From a virus (taxonomy: Duplodnaviria; Heunggongvirae; Uroviricota; Caudoviricetes), in the IMG/VR virus record IMGVR_UViG_2778261674_000006: DNA of 4,247 bases; one strand, given 5' to 3'. Each line of letters starts with the position of its first letter. Within the stretch, counting starts at the first letter, position 1. The translations under genes were made by a program, and so were the position numbers. The notes beneath the pieces are model-generated. The model ran no database searches. It saw nothing but the letters and a program-made list of their open reading frames with translations, and was not told where the DNA came from. Positions 1-4,247 of this stretch are shown one piece after another.

Positions 1-686
1 CTGCCGAACTGCTCCGAGTCCACCTGCACGCCGACCAGTGCCGTGTTCGGGTAGCACTGTTTCACATCGATGATTTCGGTGTATGACGACCAGAGCGTTT
101 TGTTCTGCAGCTGGTCTGTGGTGCTGTCCGGCGTCATCCTGCGCATCCGGATATTGAACGGGCGCGGCGGCAGGTTACCCACCACCACCGAGGCCAGATA
201 CTGCGAGGTGGTTTTGCCCTTAATGGTGATGTCTTTTTCCGTCACCCAGCCACCATTACGCTGTATCTGAACCAGCAGGCGGACTTCCGACGGATTCCGG
301 TCCCCCTTTGAGGTGGTTTCCACCAGTGCCTGCACGCCGAAGGTAAAGCGCAGACGGTCGATGTTTGCAGACGTAATGGTGCGGGTGATCGGCGTGTCAT
401 ATTTCACTTCCGTACCCAGCACCGTCTCGGAGCCGGAGGATTCAAACCCCTCCGGCGGTGTCTGCTCCTGCTCACCGGCACGGAACACCACCGTGACACC
501 GGAGATGTTGGTATTCCCCTCAGTGTCCAGCACCGGCGTACTGTTCAGCAGCACGCTTTTTAATCCATCCACCGGACCTTCAACCGGCCCTTCGCTGATG
601 GCATCGATCACACTCAGCAACTGCGTGGACTTCAGGTTGTCCTTCGCTTCGCGCGGGGTATGCCCCTTACTGCTGCCTTTACCCAT
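1..686 (-). CDS. J: Tail tip / host specificity protein J, N-terminal ~228 aa; gene continues beyond the window start
   Basis: Reverse-complement translation from the ATG at 686..684 reads MGKGSSKGHTPREAKDNLKSTQLLSVIDAISEGP...TALVGVQVDSEQFG with no stop to position 1; this matches my memory of the lambda gpJ N-terminus. The ORF is not in the supplied track because it runs off the window edge. The plus-strand ORFs 70..270 and 313..702 are antisense shadows. Confidence 0.88.
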   Translation of the reverse strand, partial: MGKGSSKGHTPREAKDNLKSTQLLSVIDAISEGPVEGPVDGLKSVLLNSTPVLDTEGNTNISGVTVVFRAGEQEQTPPEGFESSGSETVLGTEVKYDTPITRTITSANIDRLRFTFGVQALVETTSKGDRNPSEVRLLVQIQRNGGWVTEKDITIKGKTTSQYLASVVVGNLPPRPFNIRMRRMTPDSTTDQLQNKTLWSSYTEIIDVKQCYPNTALVGVQVDSEQFG

Positions 687-710
687 TCGTCACGCTCCAT
701 AAACGACAAA

Positions 711-726
711 ACCGCCCGCAGGCGGT
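711..726 (-). other. Stem-loop in the I-J intergenic spacer (ACCGCC-cgca-GGCGGT), followed on the minus strand by a T-rich run (TTTTGTCGTTTAT)
   Basis: Perfect 6-bp inverted repeat with a 4-nt loop read directly from the sequence, located between the I stop (747) and the J start (686). Could be a weak terminator/attenuator or an mRNA structure element. Confidence 0.3.
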
Positions 727-746
727 TTCACATAAAACATTTTTCA

Positions 747-1388
747 TCAGCGACCAATCACCACAACCTGACCACCATCACCTTCATCTGCCGTGCTGAT
801 CTCCTGAGATACCACCCGCGACCCCACACGCATTTCACCGTACAGAACGGGCAGGACATTGCCCTGGGCAACCATATTATCCAGTGAAGAAAAATAGGTG
901 TTCTGTTTGCCGTTATCCGTTGTCTGTGTGCGAGGGGTTTTGGGTCTAGGGGCCAGCATCTGTGCAACACCGCCAAGCGTCATACTGGCGCCGAGAGAAA
1001 ACAGCAGATTACTCGCCATAATTCCTACCCCCGGCATCCATATAGCAACCGCCATAACAGCCGCCCCCAGCACAGCCTGAAACACACCGCCACTTTTGGC
1101 TCCTGCCAGACGCGGCACGATATGGATCACAGCACCATTTGCCAGCGGTTCATTAAGACGGGCTGATAATTCCGTTTCACCTGTATCACGCCCGGCAATG
1201 CGTACCTGATACCAGCCGTCGCTCAGCTTCTGACGAAACGCCGGGATCTGCATGGCCAGCGCCCGGATGGCTTCGGCCCCCGTTTTCACACGAAGGTCGA
1301 TGCGGCGGCCAAATCGTTGCAAATCCCCGTAAAGGCAGATGCGTGCCATTCCCGGTGACGCCAGAGGGAGTGTGTGCGTCGCTGCCAT
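747..1388 (-). CDS. I: Tail assembly protein I (lambda gpI family), 213 aa
   Basis: ORF-track protein MAATHTLPLASPGMARICLYGDLQRFGRRIDLRVKTGAEAIRAL...NGKQNTYFSSLDNMVAQGNVLPVLYGEMRVGSRVVSQEISTADEGDGGQVVVIGR matches lambda gpI as I recall it. Its start overlaps the 3' end of K by 103 bp, and a ~60-bp spacer precedes J, as I recall for lambda. Confidence 0.88.
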   Translation of the reverse strand: MAATHTLPLASPGMARICLYGDLQRFGRRIDLRVKTGAEAIRALAMQIPAFRQKLSDGWYQVRIAGRDTGETELSARLNEPLANGAVIHIVPRLAGAKSGGVFQAVLGAAVMAVAIWMPGVGIMASNLLFSLGASMTLGGVAQMLAPRPKTPRTQTTDNGKQNTYFSSLDNMVAQGNVLPVLYGEMRVGSRVVSQEISTADEGDGGQVVVIGR

Positions 1389-2023
1389 TTGTCGGTATAC
1401 CTCTCTCGTTTACTCAGTTGTTCAGGAATATGGTGCAGCAGCTCACCGTCGCCGCAGTAAATGGCGGCATGATTCGGCACCGATGAACCAAAGCAGCACA
1501 GCAGCACATCGCCAGGCTGCGCCTCTGTCAGTGGGACACGGTAAAAACCAGTCGCCTCCATATTGTCAAGATAGAGATTCTGACCGTGACGCCACCAGTC
1601 ATCCCCGCGATAAAAATCCGGCATCTCAATCCCCGCCAGATGATAAGCATCCCGGAACAGCGTGTAACAGTCCGTCACCCCGTGCTCAAAGCGCCGCCCG
1701 GTGAGATGCGGCACACAGCGGAACTTGTGAATCGCCCCCCGGCAGACCAGCCACCACGGCAAATCACTCTGCACCTGCAGCCGCCGGTCGGCCTCACTCA
1801 GCCAGGGCAGACCACCGGGGTGACTGTGGACCAGCGCCACAATCTCACCCTGCATCTCTGCCTGCAGCCAGTCCTCCGGAGCCATCCGGAAATACGCCTC
1901 CGGCTCACCGGAGATATTCACGCAGGAAAAATATCTTTCCTCCTCCGGCGTTCTCACCACGAAGCCGCACGACTCCGCTGGCGCACATCGCCGGGCGTGC
2001 GCCAATATATTGCTATAGGGCAT
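1286..2023 (-). CDS. K: Tail assembly protein K (lambda gpK family; MPN/JAMM-like N-terminal region plus NlpC/P60-like C-terminal region), 245 aa from the ATG at 2023
   Basis: ORF-track frame 1286..2062. It contains the JAMM-type motif HSHPGGLPWLSEAD preceded by EMQGE, and Cys/His-containing segments (GVTDCYTLF, HAAIY, HHIPE) typical of NlpC/P60 peptidases. I chose the start at 2023 because AGGAG (2033..2029) sits 5 nt upstream; the track's ATG at 2062 would put a terminator hairpin inside the coding sequence and lacks a ribosome-binding site. An in-frame ATG at 1885 is a third alternative. Confidence 0.82.
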   Translation of the reverse strand: MPYSNILAHARRCAPAESCGFVVRTPEEERYFSCVNISGEPEAYFRMAPEDWLQAEMQGEIVALVHSHPGGLPWLSEADRRLQVQSDLPWWLVCRGAIHKFRCVPHLTGRRFEHGVTDCYTLFRDAYHLAGIEMPDFYRGDDWWRHGQNLYLDNMEATGFYRVPLTEAQPGDVLLCCFGSSVPNHAAIYCGDGELLHHIPEQLSKRERYTDKWQRRTHSLWRHREWHASAFTGICNDLAAASTFV

Positions 2024-2034
2024 GAGAACTCCTG

Positions 2035-2059
2035 ATAAAAAACCCAGCCGAAGCTGGGT
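2035..2059 (-). terminator. Intrinsic terminator downstream of the antirepressor gene and immediately upstream of the K ribosome-binding site
   Basis: Minus-strand reading: ACCCAGC-ttcg-GCTGGGT (2059..2042) followed by TTTTTTAT (2041..2034), then AGGAG and the ATG of K. This is a classic GC stem plus U-tract. Confidence 0.6.
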
Positions 2060-2077
2060 CATTTCGTTGGCAATCTG

Positions 2078-2998
2078 TTAGTAGTGATGCAGTGAAGGAG
2101 GTAATTCTTTGTTCTTAAGTCTTAGCCATGCAGAAAGATTCGTTGGTCCGTCTGGCTCATTAATATCAATATCTCGCGTGTGATTGATTAAAACGTCTCT
2201 CGCCATTCCAATAACATACGAGAACTCATGACCGTAGTCGTAGCATCTGCAGGAATAGTTCGATTGAATTTGCTTTAGCGCCGGATACAGTTCGCGGAAT
2301 AATGCCTGTGAGCGGTTGGCATAATCCCATAACCATACAAGGCTGTTTGCTTCTTTTGCAGAAAGCTCGTTGGTTTTCTTCTCTTGTTTTCCGATGAATT
2401 CGCCTTCAAGTGGAATACGAGCAGCAAGTGACAGTGCTTCGGTAAACTGCTCCTCACTGATTTCTTTGTACGAACATCCAAAATGGGATTTCAGTGACGA
2501 CCACATGGTGATCATCGCCTTCGCCTGTTTTTCTTTTGGCAGAGACTGACCGCGACTCATGACGAGTTGTTTAATAGCTTCCTGCTGTTCAGTGGTGATT
2601 TTCCCCAGCAATGCCTTTTTAGCTTTGCGCGGGTTAATCACATGGCCTTTAGTCCAGTACTCGTAGAGCACATCGTCACACTCTTCCTGATACTGGATTA
2701 CCTTCTCGCGGATTTCAGGGCGGACTTTGTTAGGACTGATGGTTTGGAGCCAACCATTCAGTTTACGCAAAGCAAGGCAAATCATGGTCTGCATACCGCC
2801 AACTGAAGGTATTGCGATTTCCACAATACCTTTAGCAAATCTTTGTTTTAACTTTGTAAACTGTGAAGCCCAATCCATACCCATTCCCTCAACGATAGGT
2901 TTCATTGGGGTGTACGGTTCGCCGTTGTGATTGACGACATAAAGCTCTGCGCCGTGGAATGGCACGTTGATAGTAGATACCGCTGTTGCTATACTCAT
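2078..2998 (-). CDS. ant: Phage antirepressor (Ant-like; the N-terminal region resembles the P22 antirepressor N-terminal domain family), 306 aa from the ATG at 2998
   Basis: ORF-track frame 2078..3052. I chose the start at 2998 (MSIATAVSTINVPFHGAELYVVNHNGEPYTPMKPIVEGMGMDWASQFTKL...) because AAGGAA (3012..3007) lies 8 nt upstream; the 3052 start adds 18 residues that overlap a terminator hairpin. The protein resembles antirepressors from enterobacterial prophages, and the gene sits directly downstream of an Arc-like gene as in P22 immI. Confidence 0.75.
   Translation of the reverse strand: MSIATAVSTINVPFHGAELYVVNHNGEPYTPMKPIVEGMGMDWASQFTKLKQRFAKGIVEIAIPSVGGMQTMICLALRKLNGWLQTISPNKVRPEIREKVIQYQEECDDVLYEYWTKGHVINPRKAKKALLGKITTEQQEAIKQLVMSRGQSLPKEKQAKAMITMWSSLKSHFGCSYKEISEEQFTEALSLAARIPLEGEFIGKQEKKTNELSAKEANSLVWLWDYANRSQALFRELYPALKQIQSNYSCRCYDYGHEFSYVIGMARDVLINHTRDIDINEPDGPTNLSAWLRLKNKELPPSLHHY
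2967..2995 (+). promoter_or_regulatory. Candidate sigma70 promoter for an antisense (sar-like) RNA: TTGATA -17 bp- TATACT
   Basis: -35 TTGATA at 2967..2972, a 17-bp spacer, and -10 TATACT at 2990..2995 on the plus strand, inside the 5' end of ant and pointing away from it. The predicted transcription start is near 3002. Confidence 0.4.
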
Positions 2999-3001
2999 TT
3001 C

Positions 3002-3071
3002 GTTAGTTCCTTGGAAGTTACTGACATAGAAGCCCGATTTGTGTTCGCGCACTGTCGGGCTTCGCTATTTT
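3002..3071 (+). ncRNA. sar: Candidate sar-like cis-antisense small RNA (~70 nt) complementary to the ant ribosome-binding site and the arc-ant spacer
   Basis: It is bounded upstream by the promoter above and downstream by a plus-strand intrinsic terminator: stem GAAGCCCGA (3029..3037) / TCGGGCTTC (3055..3063), a 17-nt loop, then GCTATTTTTAT (T-tract 3066..3071). The transcript would be antisense to the ant Shine-Dalgarno at 3007..3012. As I recall, P22 has a ~70-nt sar RNA in the same position. Confidence 0.35.
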
Positions 3072-3238
3072 TATGTCCTAGCATTCTTCTCTCCAATCAG
3101 TCCGTACACTTTTCTCAATTGATAAATAAGTTCCGTGTTGAACTGTCGACACTCTTTTTCTCCATTTCTTTCAATCGCCTTCCTTACATCCTCTGGGAAA
3201 CGAACCTTGCGTTGATACATGTCTTTTGCTTTTTCCAT
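3071..3238 (-). CDS. arc: Arc-like ribbon-helix-helix transcriptional repressor, 55 aa (not in the supplied ORF track)
   Basis: Manual translation of the minus strand from the ATG at 3238..3236 gives MEKAKDMYQRKVRFPEDVRKAIERNGEKECRQFNTELIYQLRKVYGLIGEKNART, ending at TAA 3073..3071. A strong ribosome-binding site AAGGAG (3249..3244) lies 5 nt upstream. The pattern (basic beta-strand RKVRFPEDV, then N-[ST]-E-[IL]-x-Y-Q) resembles P22 Arc (...FNLRWPREVLDLVRKVAEENGRSVNSEIYQRV...) as I recall it. Confidence 0.65.
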   Translation of the reverse strand: MEKAKDMYQRKVRFPEDVRKAIERNGEKECRQFNTELIYQLRKVYGLIGEKNART

Positions 3239-3255
3239 CTCCACTCCTTAAATAG

Positions 3256-3318
3256 CCTCACTGTGGGGCAATCAAAATTGTCACACCGTGCGTCATTGAA
3301 GTCAACCCCACCGTGGGG
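3256..3318. promoter_or_regulatory. Three candidate operator sites with a CACNGTG core, centred at 3262, 3287 and 3312 (exactly 25 bp apart)
   Basis: Site 1, 3256..3268: CCTCAC-t-GTGGGG (one mismatch). Site 2, 3281..3293: tcaCAC-c-GTGcgt (core only). Site 3, 3306..3318: CCCCAC-c-GTGGGG (perfect 6+1+6 palindrome). Sites 1 and 3 also share the direct repeat CACYGTGGGGCA. Sites 2 and 3 fall in the spacers of the two divergent promoters; site 1 lies between the predicted ant-operon start and its ribosome-binding site. Confidence 0.55.
3277..3305 (-). promoter_or_regulatory. Candidate promoter for the arc-ant operon: TTGACT -17 bp- (TGt)GACAAT, minus strand
   Basis: Minus-strand reading: -35 TTGACT (3305..3300), a 17-bp spacer, and -10 GACAAT (3282..3277) preceded by a TGn extended -10 motif. 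Site 2 lies in the spacer. Confidence 0.4.
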
Positions 3319-3324
3319 CATAAT
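3296..3324 (+). promoter_or_regulatory. Candidate promoter for the mnt-like gene: TTGAAG -17 bp- CATAAT, plus strand
   Basis: -35 TTGAAG (3296..3301), a 17-bp spacer containing the perfect palindrome (site 3), and -10 CATAAT (3319..3324). Its -35 overlaps the -35 of the divergent arc-ant promoter (3300..3305). Confidence 0.45.
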
Positions 3325-3361
3325 TTACTTATTGTGAATTTTTCCTGTTTGGACTAATGGT

Positions 3362-3736
3362 ATGAGTAGAGAAGACCCTCAACTTCGGATTAGGCTTCCT
3401 GTTGAATTAAAAAAAATAATTGAAGCGTCATCAAAACAAAATAATCGTTCTATGAATGCTGAGATTGTCACTCTGCTTGAGTTGGCGATTCGTGTTTGTC
3501 GTGATTTTGGGCCGGAGGATGGTCCTATCGTTCAGCAGTTTAAAGAACAACTAGATGCGATAAACAGAAAATATGATAAAAGCGAGCATGAAAAACTTAT
3601 ACCTCAACTTTTAGAAATCATAGAAAAACAGAAAAAACAAGTAGATAAACTTATTAGCATGGTTGAAAGATCAATTCCTCTTTCAGAGGAATATAAGCAG
3701 AAATATCTTGGTGATGACAACAAAAAACCCACCTGA
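3362..3736 (+). CDS. mnt: Mnt-like ribbon-helix-helix repressor with an extended C-terminal, probably coiled-coil, region; 124 aa
   Basis: ORF-track protein MSREDPQLRIRLPVELKKIIEASSKQNNRSMNAEIVTLLELAI... aligns by eye with P22 Mnt (MARDDPHFNFRMPMEVREKLKFRAEANGRSMNSELLQIVQDAL, from memory): M-x-R-[DE]-DP, R-[ML]-P-x-E-[VL], N-RSMN-[SA]-E-[LI]. The C-terminal ~70 residues are rich in K/E/Q/L with a heptad-like pattern. The gene is divergent from arc-ant. Confidence 0.78.
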   Translation: MSREDPQLRIRLPVELKKIIEASSKQNNRSMNAEIVTLLELAIRVCRDFGPEDGPIVQQFKEQLDAINRKYDKSEHEKLIPQLLEIIEKQKKQVDKLISMVERSIPLSEEYKQKYLGDDNKKPT

Positions 3737-3743
3737 TGGTGGG
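3722..3743 (-). terminator. Hairpin plus T-tract at the convergent L / mnt-like junction; terminator-like only for the minus (L) strand
   Basis: Minus-strand reading: CCCACC-atca-GGTGGG (3743..3728) followed by TTTTTTG (3727..3721), beginning 10 nt after the L stop codon. On the plus strand the hairpin is preceded, not followed, by the A/T run, so it is a poor terminator for the mnt-like transcript. The hairpin overlaps the last mnt-like codons and its stop (3734..3736). Confidence 0.45.
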
Positions 3744-3752
3744 CATAATCCA

Positions 3753-4247
3753 TTACTGCGAAAGCTTGTTAATGGAAAGGAAGCCGCCAAAGTTGCCGAC
3801 GTTATTGCGAAACTTACAGCCACTCAGGCATTTGCTGCATTTATCCTTCGTGATATCGGACGTTGGCTGGTCATATTCATCCGCGACTGCCGGACCGTTA
3901 TAACCGCACTCATCACCGCGATAGGTCCAGGTGCAGGTGTTGGCCAGCATGATACGTCCCGGAAAAACAGCGCCATCTGTTTCCGTCGGCGTGGACAGTA
4001 CAAAAGAGGCACTGACCGCGCTCAGTTCGCTGCACTGCTCGATGCGCCAGCGGCTGATCACCTCCTGCTCCGGATCGGCGTCGCTGTTTCCGTTGACGAA
4101 GTTCACCGCATCCAGAAAACGGGCATAAACCTTACGCCTGACCACCGTTCCGCCGACCAGACTCTGCAGGTCTTCCGCCATCCCGGTGACCATACCGTAC
4201 AGGTTAGAAACCGTCAGCGTGGGGCGCGTACTGGTGCCTTTGCCATT
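3753..4247 (-). CDS. L: Tail tip protein L, C-terminal ~164 aa; the 5' end lies beyond the window end
   Basis: ORF-track protein (from an internal Met) MVTGMAEDLQSLVGGTVVRRKVYARFLDAVNFVNGNSDADPEQEVISRWRIEQCSELS...CSKCLSGCKFRNNVGNFGGFLSINKLSQ matches lambda gpL as I recall it, including the Cys-rich C-terminus. The frame 3753..4193 is given in the track and appears to stay open up to 4247. Confidence 0.85.
   Translation of the reverse strand, partial: NGKGTSTRPTLTVSNLYGMVTGMAEDLQSLVGGTVVRRKVYARFLDAVNFVNGNSDADPEQEVISRWRIEQCSELSAVSASFVLSTPTETDGAVFPGRIMLANTCTWTYRGDECGYNGPAVADEYDQPTSDITKDKCSKCLSGCKFRNNVGNFGGFLSINKLSQ

Follow-up and report, generated by a model that had tools for sequence, protein, structure and literature searches.

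The stretch of DNA considered here, called the window below, is the 4,247 nucleotides of IMG/VR virus record IMGVR_UViG_2778261674_000006, from a member of the Caudoviricetes, and it holds part of a lambda-type tail operon in which all the tail genes are on the minus strand: the 3′ part of L, an insert of 1.7 kb, K, I and the start of J. The insert, 2004..3752 and from here on the cassette, sits exactly between L and K. At its K end, between the antirepressor gene ant and the ribosome-binding site of K, there is a hairpin which is very probably the terminator of a P22-type arc-ant operon, part of a module inserted between L and K. The features needed at the outset are the following.

2035..2060, minus strand: putative intrinsic terminator of ant, from a terminator scan, folding and identity to the P22 ant terminator.
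2004..2036, minus strand: junction-specific segment with AGGAG, the K ATG and five new K codons (MPYSN), from comparison with P22 and with cassette-less phages.
1286..2023, minus strand: K, tail tip assembly gene, 245 amino acids, from Pfam, the PGAP start and comparison of in-frame starts.
2078..2998, minus strand: ant, antirepressor, 306 amino acids, Pfam P22_AR_N at 151.9 bits and P22_AR_C at 101 bits.

Read along the minus strand, the end of ant, ...CACTACTAA with its TAA stop at 2080..2078, is followed by CAGATTGCCAACGAA, an ATG at 2062, ACCCAGC-TTCG-GCTGGGTT, TTTTAT, a C, AGGAG, TTCTC, the ATG at 2023..2021 and CCC TAT. The hairpin itself, GACCCAGC-TTCG-GCTGGGTT (2060..2041, then TTTTAT to 2035), has an 8-bp stem with five G-C pairs, 2060..2053 pairing with 2048..2041, and a 4-nt UUCG loop (TTCG, 2052..2049); its T-tract, 2042..2037, precedes AT and gives six U’s, two of which extend the stem. 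There are 15 nt between the ant stop and the ATG at 2062, and the region from that stop to the K start appears to be noncoding, frameshifts and stop codons in it being tolerated in relatives. A G+C-rich stem-loop and U-tract, in apparently noncoding sequence shortly after a stop codon, is what would be looked for in an intrinsic, i.e., Rho-independent, terminator, and the hairpin may be taken as one. In a pattern scan, where the tail 3′ of its stem was scored as TTTTATCAGG, it was the top-ranked terminator-like site of the window, and its 30-nt segment folds at -14.4 kcal/mol (z = -4.68), with none of 200 shuffles folding as well. Terminator-like sites were not enriched across the window scan, 7 being seen against 4.6 +/- 2.3 expected, and so what carries the case is how good this particular site is, together with its homology, rather than how many sites there are. 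The initial annotation had put an intrinsic terminator directly before the K ribosome-binding site; scan rank, fold and the adjacent AGGAG all bear this out, and the coordinates it gave were correct within 1 nt. That the hairpin might be a terminator on the plus strand was rejected, its tail there, CATTTCGTTG, being weak and no plus-strand gene running into the hairpin.

To which gene does the hairpin belong? The P22 record NC_002371.2 annotates the ant terminator at 16012..16035 as ACCCAGCTTCGGCTGGGTTTTTTT, and the window’s GACCCAGCTTCGGCTGGGTTTTTT is identical to it over 24 nt, hairpin and T-tract included. With blastn, window 2037..2410 matches P22 16034..15661 at 87% identity over 374 nt, the distance from the ant stop to the terminator is 17 nt here and 18 nt in P22, and the DNA homology to P22 stops at the terminator’s last T (2037). 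C(UUCG)G hairpins being simple motifs, and a 22-mer of this one being also present in unrelated phages, the identity argument leans on the flanking homology too. Viral contigs were scanned for the exact 22-mer, with a second scan being anchored on the ant 3′ end. In these ant 3′ ends the hairpin is retained in about 145 of about 150 contigs, and it follows ant in at least four downstream contexts, namely P22-type tailspike genes, nin-region genes, K and a few others, the sequences after the T-tract diverging at once between one context and another. Such variation as it has mostly concerns the loop (CTCG, TTAG) and the length of the T-tract (5 to 7 T’s), and the stem is retained by a double change, A-U to C-G, in one locus (L304) and by G-U wobble in another (L283). 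By identity to the annotated P22 element and by its staying with the ant 3′ end whatever follows, the hairpin at 2060..2035 belongs to ant, not to K, and its naming as the ant terminator in the initial annotation holds; the finding, that it is in all likelihood the known and named P22 ant terminator, is correct but ordinary. That the element already had a name was missed in that annotation, as was a second terminator after L (3744..3722). In the P22 immI region (mnt, arc, sar, ant, terminator and the tailspike gene 9) the distance from terminator to gene 9 start is 168 nt, whereas here the ribosome-binding site of the tail gene begins 3 nt past the T-tract.

On the K side of that last T is the junction with K. 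Comparison was made with the viral contigs of the 80 nearest K relatives, 73 of them anchorable, and in about 70 of the 73 L and K are adjacent, the L TAA being followed by 4-5 nt and ATGACA[C/G]AGACAGAATCAGCG. The full cassette-less junction reads ...TTTCGCAGTAA(A)TCCC ATG ACA [C/G]AG ACA GAA TCA GCG ATT CTG GCG CAC..., giving K the N-terminus MT[Q/E]TESAILAHARR. The L 3′ end of the window aligns with these phages as far as its stop codon (3753), and on the other side lambda-type K homology resumes at about 2008, at ATA TTG GCG CAC. A joint of about 30 nt, ATCAGGAGTTCTCATGCCCTATAGCAAT, links the T-tract to this K homology; neither P22 nor cassette-less phages have it, and among viral contigs holding this joint the ant terminator is directly upstream in 49 of 49. 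These limits, P22 homology ending at 2037 and K homology beginning again some 30 nt on, point to an insertion scar, which is what the initial annotation had thought the junction might be. In the cassette-less arrangement the K start, 4-5 nt past the L stop, has no Shine-Dalgarno pairing (+0.7 kcal/mol), which suggests that the ancestral start probably depended on ribosomes finishing L. Insertion would have removed that start, and because a start right after the upstream gene’s stop was lost, the cassette would have had to supply a new ribosome-binding site; the joint appears to provide it, with AGGAG, a 5-nt spacer, the ATG at 2023 and five new codons.

Insertions between genes that are adjacent in relatives are familiar as the morons of lambdoid phages (Juhala/Hendrix) and the ‘ant moron’ of P22-like phages (PMC2629481), and the cassette is a moron in that it is absent from collinear relatives and of atypical base composition, 37-47% G+C vs 54-64% in the tail genes around it. 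It shares with morons its own promoter-like sites, its own terminator and an interior that is highly variable, with at least five variants between constant ends. It is unlike a clean moron insertion, however, in having replaced the K start and the first seven codons of K, and unlike other morons in being flanked by two terminators, both in the late direction.

The initial annotation favoured the ATG at 2023 as the K start over the one at 2062, noting that the longest frame would encode the hairpin itself. The latter is certainly so, as the G of the ATG at 2062 is the first base of the stem: this ATG shares the K frame, precedes the ATG at 2023 by 39 nt and opens a 258-amino-acid open reading frame (ORF) running through the hairpin. 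Were K to begin there, as MTQLRLGFLSGVL-MPYSN..., the hairpin would be coding and the initial MTQ could be seen as a relic of the ancestral MTQTES..., an idea encouraged by the length of the frame and by the resemblance of ATGACCCAG to the lambda-type K start ATGACACAG. The likeness is best regarded as coincidence, as the ATG at 2062 is within P22-derived sequence, where P22 reads ACG, and the ACCCAG that follows is the 5′ arm of the terminator; the relic interpretation was rejected on these grounds, and the ATG would be a chance one in the P22-derived spacer between ant and its terminator. Predicted pairing with the 16S rRNA 3′ end is +0.1 kcal/mol before 2062 vs -6.9 kcal/mol before 2023, where AGGAG (2033..2029) precedes the ATG by 5 nt. 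In-frame start codons were compared across 54 ant-K junctions, gathered with a pattern that contained the ATG at 2023. At 12 of them there are five T’s rather than six, leaving the ATG at 2062 out of frame and no in-frame upstream start; 8 more have another ant-terminator spacer with no ATG and with an in-frame TAA 42 nt upstream, so that at 20 of the 54 a long K form is impossible. What tells the other way is that 34 of the 54 retain the ATG at 2062 in frame and that conservation of the ATG at 2023 is partly built into the collecting pattern, though the lack of upstream starts is not. PGAP has the K start at 2023 in every relative checked, including phage 2851, and never uses 2062. With residues counted from 2023, Pfam places Prok-JAB at residues 4-96 (profile positions 6-103 of 114) and NLPC_P60 at residues 109-222, and the 13 extra residues of the long form fall outside the JAB domain; K thus has both the JAB/MPN and the NlpC/P60 domain of lambda gpK, and its N-terminus coincides with the JAB start. 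On this evidence K very probably starts at 2023, as had been proposed, and a regular start at 2062 is very improbable, though occasional initiation there may occur.

In cassette-less phages the start of K has been annotated inconsistently, the gene being 600 nt in Ayreon, 702 nt in mEp332 and 738 nt under PGAP. For Ayreon (L003, 1492..2091) an internal ATG has been taken that would shorten the JAB domain, and for mEp332 (L002, 2050..2230) the start is in another frame, upstream of a 1-nt indel.

The remainder of the cassette has the appearance of a P22-type secondary immunity module (immI, the ‘ant moron’), with the following components in addition to ant and its terminator.

3071..3238, minus strand: Arc-like protein, 55 amino acids, first gene of the ant operon, Pfam Arc at 19.2 bits.
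3362..3736, plus strand: Mnt-like ribbon-helix-helix repressor, 124 amino acids, divergent from arc-ant, Pfam Arc domain at 30.6 bits (above cut-off).
3277..3324, both strands: overlapping face-to-face promoter-like sites, from a consensus scan, 9/12 matches each.
2967..3072, plus strand: candidate sar-like antisense RNA, from a promoter-like site, folding and a weak Rfam match.
3722..3744, minus strand: terminator-like hairpin by L, GCCCACC-ATCA-GGTGGGT and six T’s, second-best site of the scan.

All the cassette ORFs are intact. Ant shares 56% identity with P22 Ant, and over the C-terminal third (last 120 residues) the two are near-identical. The score of the Arc-like ORF is just below the Pfam cut-off of 20.4 bits, and PGAP calls its coding sequence ‘hypothetical’ in the closest prophage and ‘Arc family’ in variants; the Mnt-like gene, ‘Arc family DNA-binding protein’ to PGAP, is in a position matching that of P22 mnt. 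Of the two promoter-like sites, the one on the minus strand (3305..3277) is predicted to drive arc-ant, like Pant, and the one on the plus strand (3296..3324) the Mnt-like gene, like Pmnt, a layout that matches P22’s annotated pair. Direct repeats CAC[T/C]GTGGGGCA, at about 3260..3271 and 3309..3320, flank these sites and could be operators. Inside the first ant codons is the best promoter-like site of the window (2967..2995, 10/12 matches and an upstream TG), from which a candidate sar-like RNA of about 70 nt, at about 3002..3072, could be made. It would be complementary to the ant ribosome-binding site, has two hairpins and a TATTTTTAT end at the Arc-like stop codon, and folds at -28.1 kcal/mol (z = -4.3) in the same two-hairpin shape as P22 sar. 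An Rfam search of the whole window gave no match at E <= 1, and a narrow search gave one to the sar model that is full length (3002..3066) and sub-threshold, 15.6 bits against a gathering score of 43, P22 sar itself scoring 97.8 bits; because of this the RNA remains a candidate.

Gene order and orientation (the divergent Mnt-like gene, the Arc-like gene, an antisense promoter-like site within ant, and ant) are those of P22 immI, and in both phages the module is in the late operon directly upstream of a tail gene, which in P22 is the tailspike gene (PMC2629481). The differences are that the host operon here is of the lambda long-tail type, with the module between L and K, while that of P22 is short-tail, with the module between genes 16 and 9; that the Mnt-like protein has 124 amino acids vs the 83 implied by the P22 mnt coordinates; that divergence is seen in the sar region and in the N-terminal half of Ant; that there is no sieA here; and that, unlike P22, there is an extra late-direction terminator at the upstream end of the cassette.

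That extra element, the hairpin at 3744..3722, folds at -12.6 kcal/mol (z = -3.6), has late-operon orientation, forms the left boundary of the cassette and extends into the final codons of the Mnt-like gene, which is convergent with it. The cassette would thus be bracketed by two terminators, both in the late direction. In at least five cassette variants the L-side sequence TGGATTATGCCCACC[A/G]TCAGGTGGGTTTTTT is constant, with divergence right after its T-tract. These variants, 1641 to 2327 nt from L stop to K ATG, differ in the L-side half, which is swapped between prophages while both ends are constant (NZ_CP146681/L247, NZ_CP010240/L248, NZ_CP070229/L249 and viral contigs). The regulators are Arc/Mnt-like (124 or 106 amino acids), a LexA-family (S24) repressor, or two Arc-family proteins with a ClpP-like protease and a YlcI/YnfO protein. 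In the ClpP variant (L247, about 3060..3116, minus strand) the L-side terminator is followed by TTTTTTAT-AAGGAG-TAATC-ATG, which is close to the TTTTTTAT-CAGGAG-TTCTC-ATG before K; the likeness may be a clue to where the K joint came from, or be chance.

We tentatively suggest that the cassette could be a swappable immunity slot, in which the two constant terminators and the rebuilt K ribosome-binding site act as fixed recombination joints. If so, regulator sets could be exchanged with tail gene expression left intact; the upstream terminator would shield ant from accidental read-in, which could induce the prophage, and the downstream one might, in addition, adjust the levels of K, I and J.

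How, with such a hairpin in the way, would the genes beyond it be expressed? Transcripts from the cassette promoter (about 3277..3305) would carry arc and ant and end at the ant terminator, so that ordinary polymerase from the cassette could not express K, I and J, and ordinary polymerase arriving from L would stop before entering the cassette. In lytic growth polymerase modified by Q, coming from the single late promoter, would ignore intrinsic terminators, and so pass the L-side terminator, the cassette, the ant terminator and the I-J hairpin described below, allowing K, I and J to be made. The read-through is a well-grounded expectation: in a 99% identical prophage a single late operon runs in one direction from Q to J, with a late-promoter region similar to P22’s and a Q that shares 96% identity with P22 gp23. 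For P22 itself, termination between ant and gene 9, and read-through dependent on gp23, were reportedly described by Berget, Poteete and Sauer in J Mol Biol in 1983.

The explanation has to be set against some weaknesses and against two other ideas of what the hairpin does. Identification of the terminator in this context comes from sequence, and the efficiency with which it would terminate here is one that we infer; the Q gene and late promoter are outside the window and are taken from the closest relative; and the stem is near-invariant in the approximately 150 loci, so that the one compensatory and the one wobble variant are too few for covariation statistics. These points all weigh against it. 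One of the other ideas is that the hairpin acts on read-through transcripts, either as a partial attenuator lowering the K, I and J mRNA below that of the upstream tail genes, Q-modified polymerase included, or as an RNA-stability or processing element that protects the ant mRNA 3′ end. There are, after all, three late-direction terminator-like hairpins around genes whose products, from what is known of lambda, are probably needed in small amounts. The P22 ant moron, too, may alter the frequency with which polymerase from the late promoter gets as far as the tailspike gene (PMC2629481, citing Adams et al. 1985), and the phage L paper considers terminators within late operons, of unknown role, to give possibly partial termination. 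However, cassette-less relatives have no such element between L and K, and for them attenuation there is therefore unneeded for tail assembly. In addition, intrinsic terminators have very little effect on polymerase modified by a lambda-type Q. As the chief function of the hairpin attenuation or processing is improbable; it is compatible with termination of the arc-ant operon, and is best taken as an additional role.

The other idea is that of an inert passenger, a relic kept with ant that no longer terminates, e.g., through the cassette promoter being dead. The promoter calls do have just 9/12 consensus matches, the Arc-like ORF is slightly under its cut-off, and degraded ant morons are known among P22-like phages (PMC2629481). 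But the cassette ORFs are intact, the sar-like promoter and the hairpins are well formed, and hairpin and T-tract are retained in nearly all of the loci surveyed while the flanking spacer and downstream sequences vary; besides, an intrinsic terminator acts on any polymerase that is not antiterminated, whatever its promoter. That the hairpin is a dead relic is scarcely to be credited, and a working terminator of the arc-ant operon continues to be very much the preferred explanation.

The other features of the window belong to the tail operon on either side.

3753..4247, minus strand: 3′ part of L (minor tail protein L), from the ORF list and the PGAP annotation of the 99% identical prophage; its stop codon TAA is 3755..3753.
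747..1388, minus strand: I, tail assembly gene, from the ORF list and Pfam Lambda_tail_I at 84.5 bits; its longest ORF overlaps the 3′ end of K.
707..731, minus strand: I-J hairpin, AAACCGCC-TGCG-GGCGGTTT then TG, from folding and the Ayreon annotation.
1..686, minus strand: 5′ part of J, tail fibre gene, with its start ATG at 686..684, read from the sequence MGKGSSKGHTPREAK... and from PGAP gpJ in the near-identical prophage.

The I-J hairpin (731..707) folds at -16.1 kcal/mol (z = -3.0), and the site matching it is annotated ‘terminator’ in phage Ayreon; it is a further terminator-like element within the late operon. About 30 nt of the I-J spacer (window 707..750) differ from the 99% identical prophage (L001), where the annotated end of I is shifted. 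The closest annotated relative is the Escherichia coli prophage of NZ_CP062871, 99.2% identical and annotated in the same way by PGAP; downstream of its tail fibre genes (L251 42429..44511) are type III effector genes, for EspS and an EspJ-family protein.

Of 5426 complete E. coli genomes, 461 have the same ant-K junction, O157:H7, O26 and O111 strains among them. The Shiga toxin (Stx) phages 2851, an Stx2c phage (NC_049943), and Stx2a_WGPS8 have the same succession of ant 3′ end, terminator, AGGAG and ATG, with K annotated from that same ATG; phage 2851 has the five T’s that put the upstream ATG out of frame, and its L-side regulator genes differ. The ant arrangement between L and K is accordingly common, and the K start is already so annotated in databases; both facts were missed by the initial annotation, as was the replacement of the K start by an independent ribosome-binding site. 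In the E. coli and phage 2851 records examined the ant terminator is unannotated, and in a limited check of the literature on Stx phages antirepressors were mentioned and the L-K cassette and its terminator undiscussed.

Beyond annotation, i.e., setting the K start at the ATG at 2023 and giving the hairpin its name as the P22 ant terminator, the importance is small, and no new question is raised. It is nonetheless a tidy example of an inserted cassette needing a new ribosome-binding site for the essential gene downstream of it, and it puts what appears to be a P22-type secondary immunity module within the tail operon in many lambdoid prophages of E. coli, those of Shiga-toxin phages among them. 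Through antirepressor modules the induction of prophages resident in the same cell can be coupled, and therefore an ant gene that would be insulated by terminators on both sides may be of some use to studies of Stx prophage induction.

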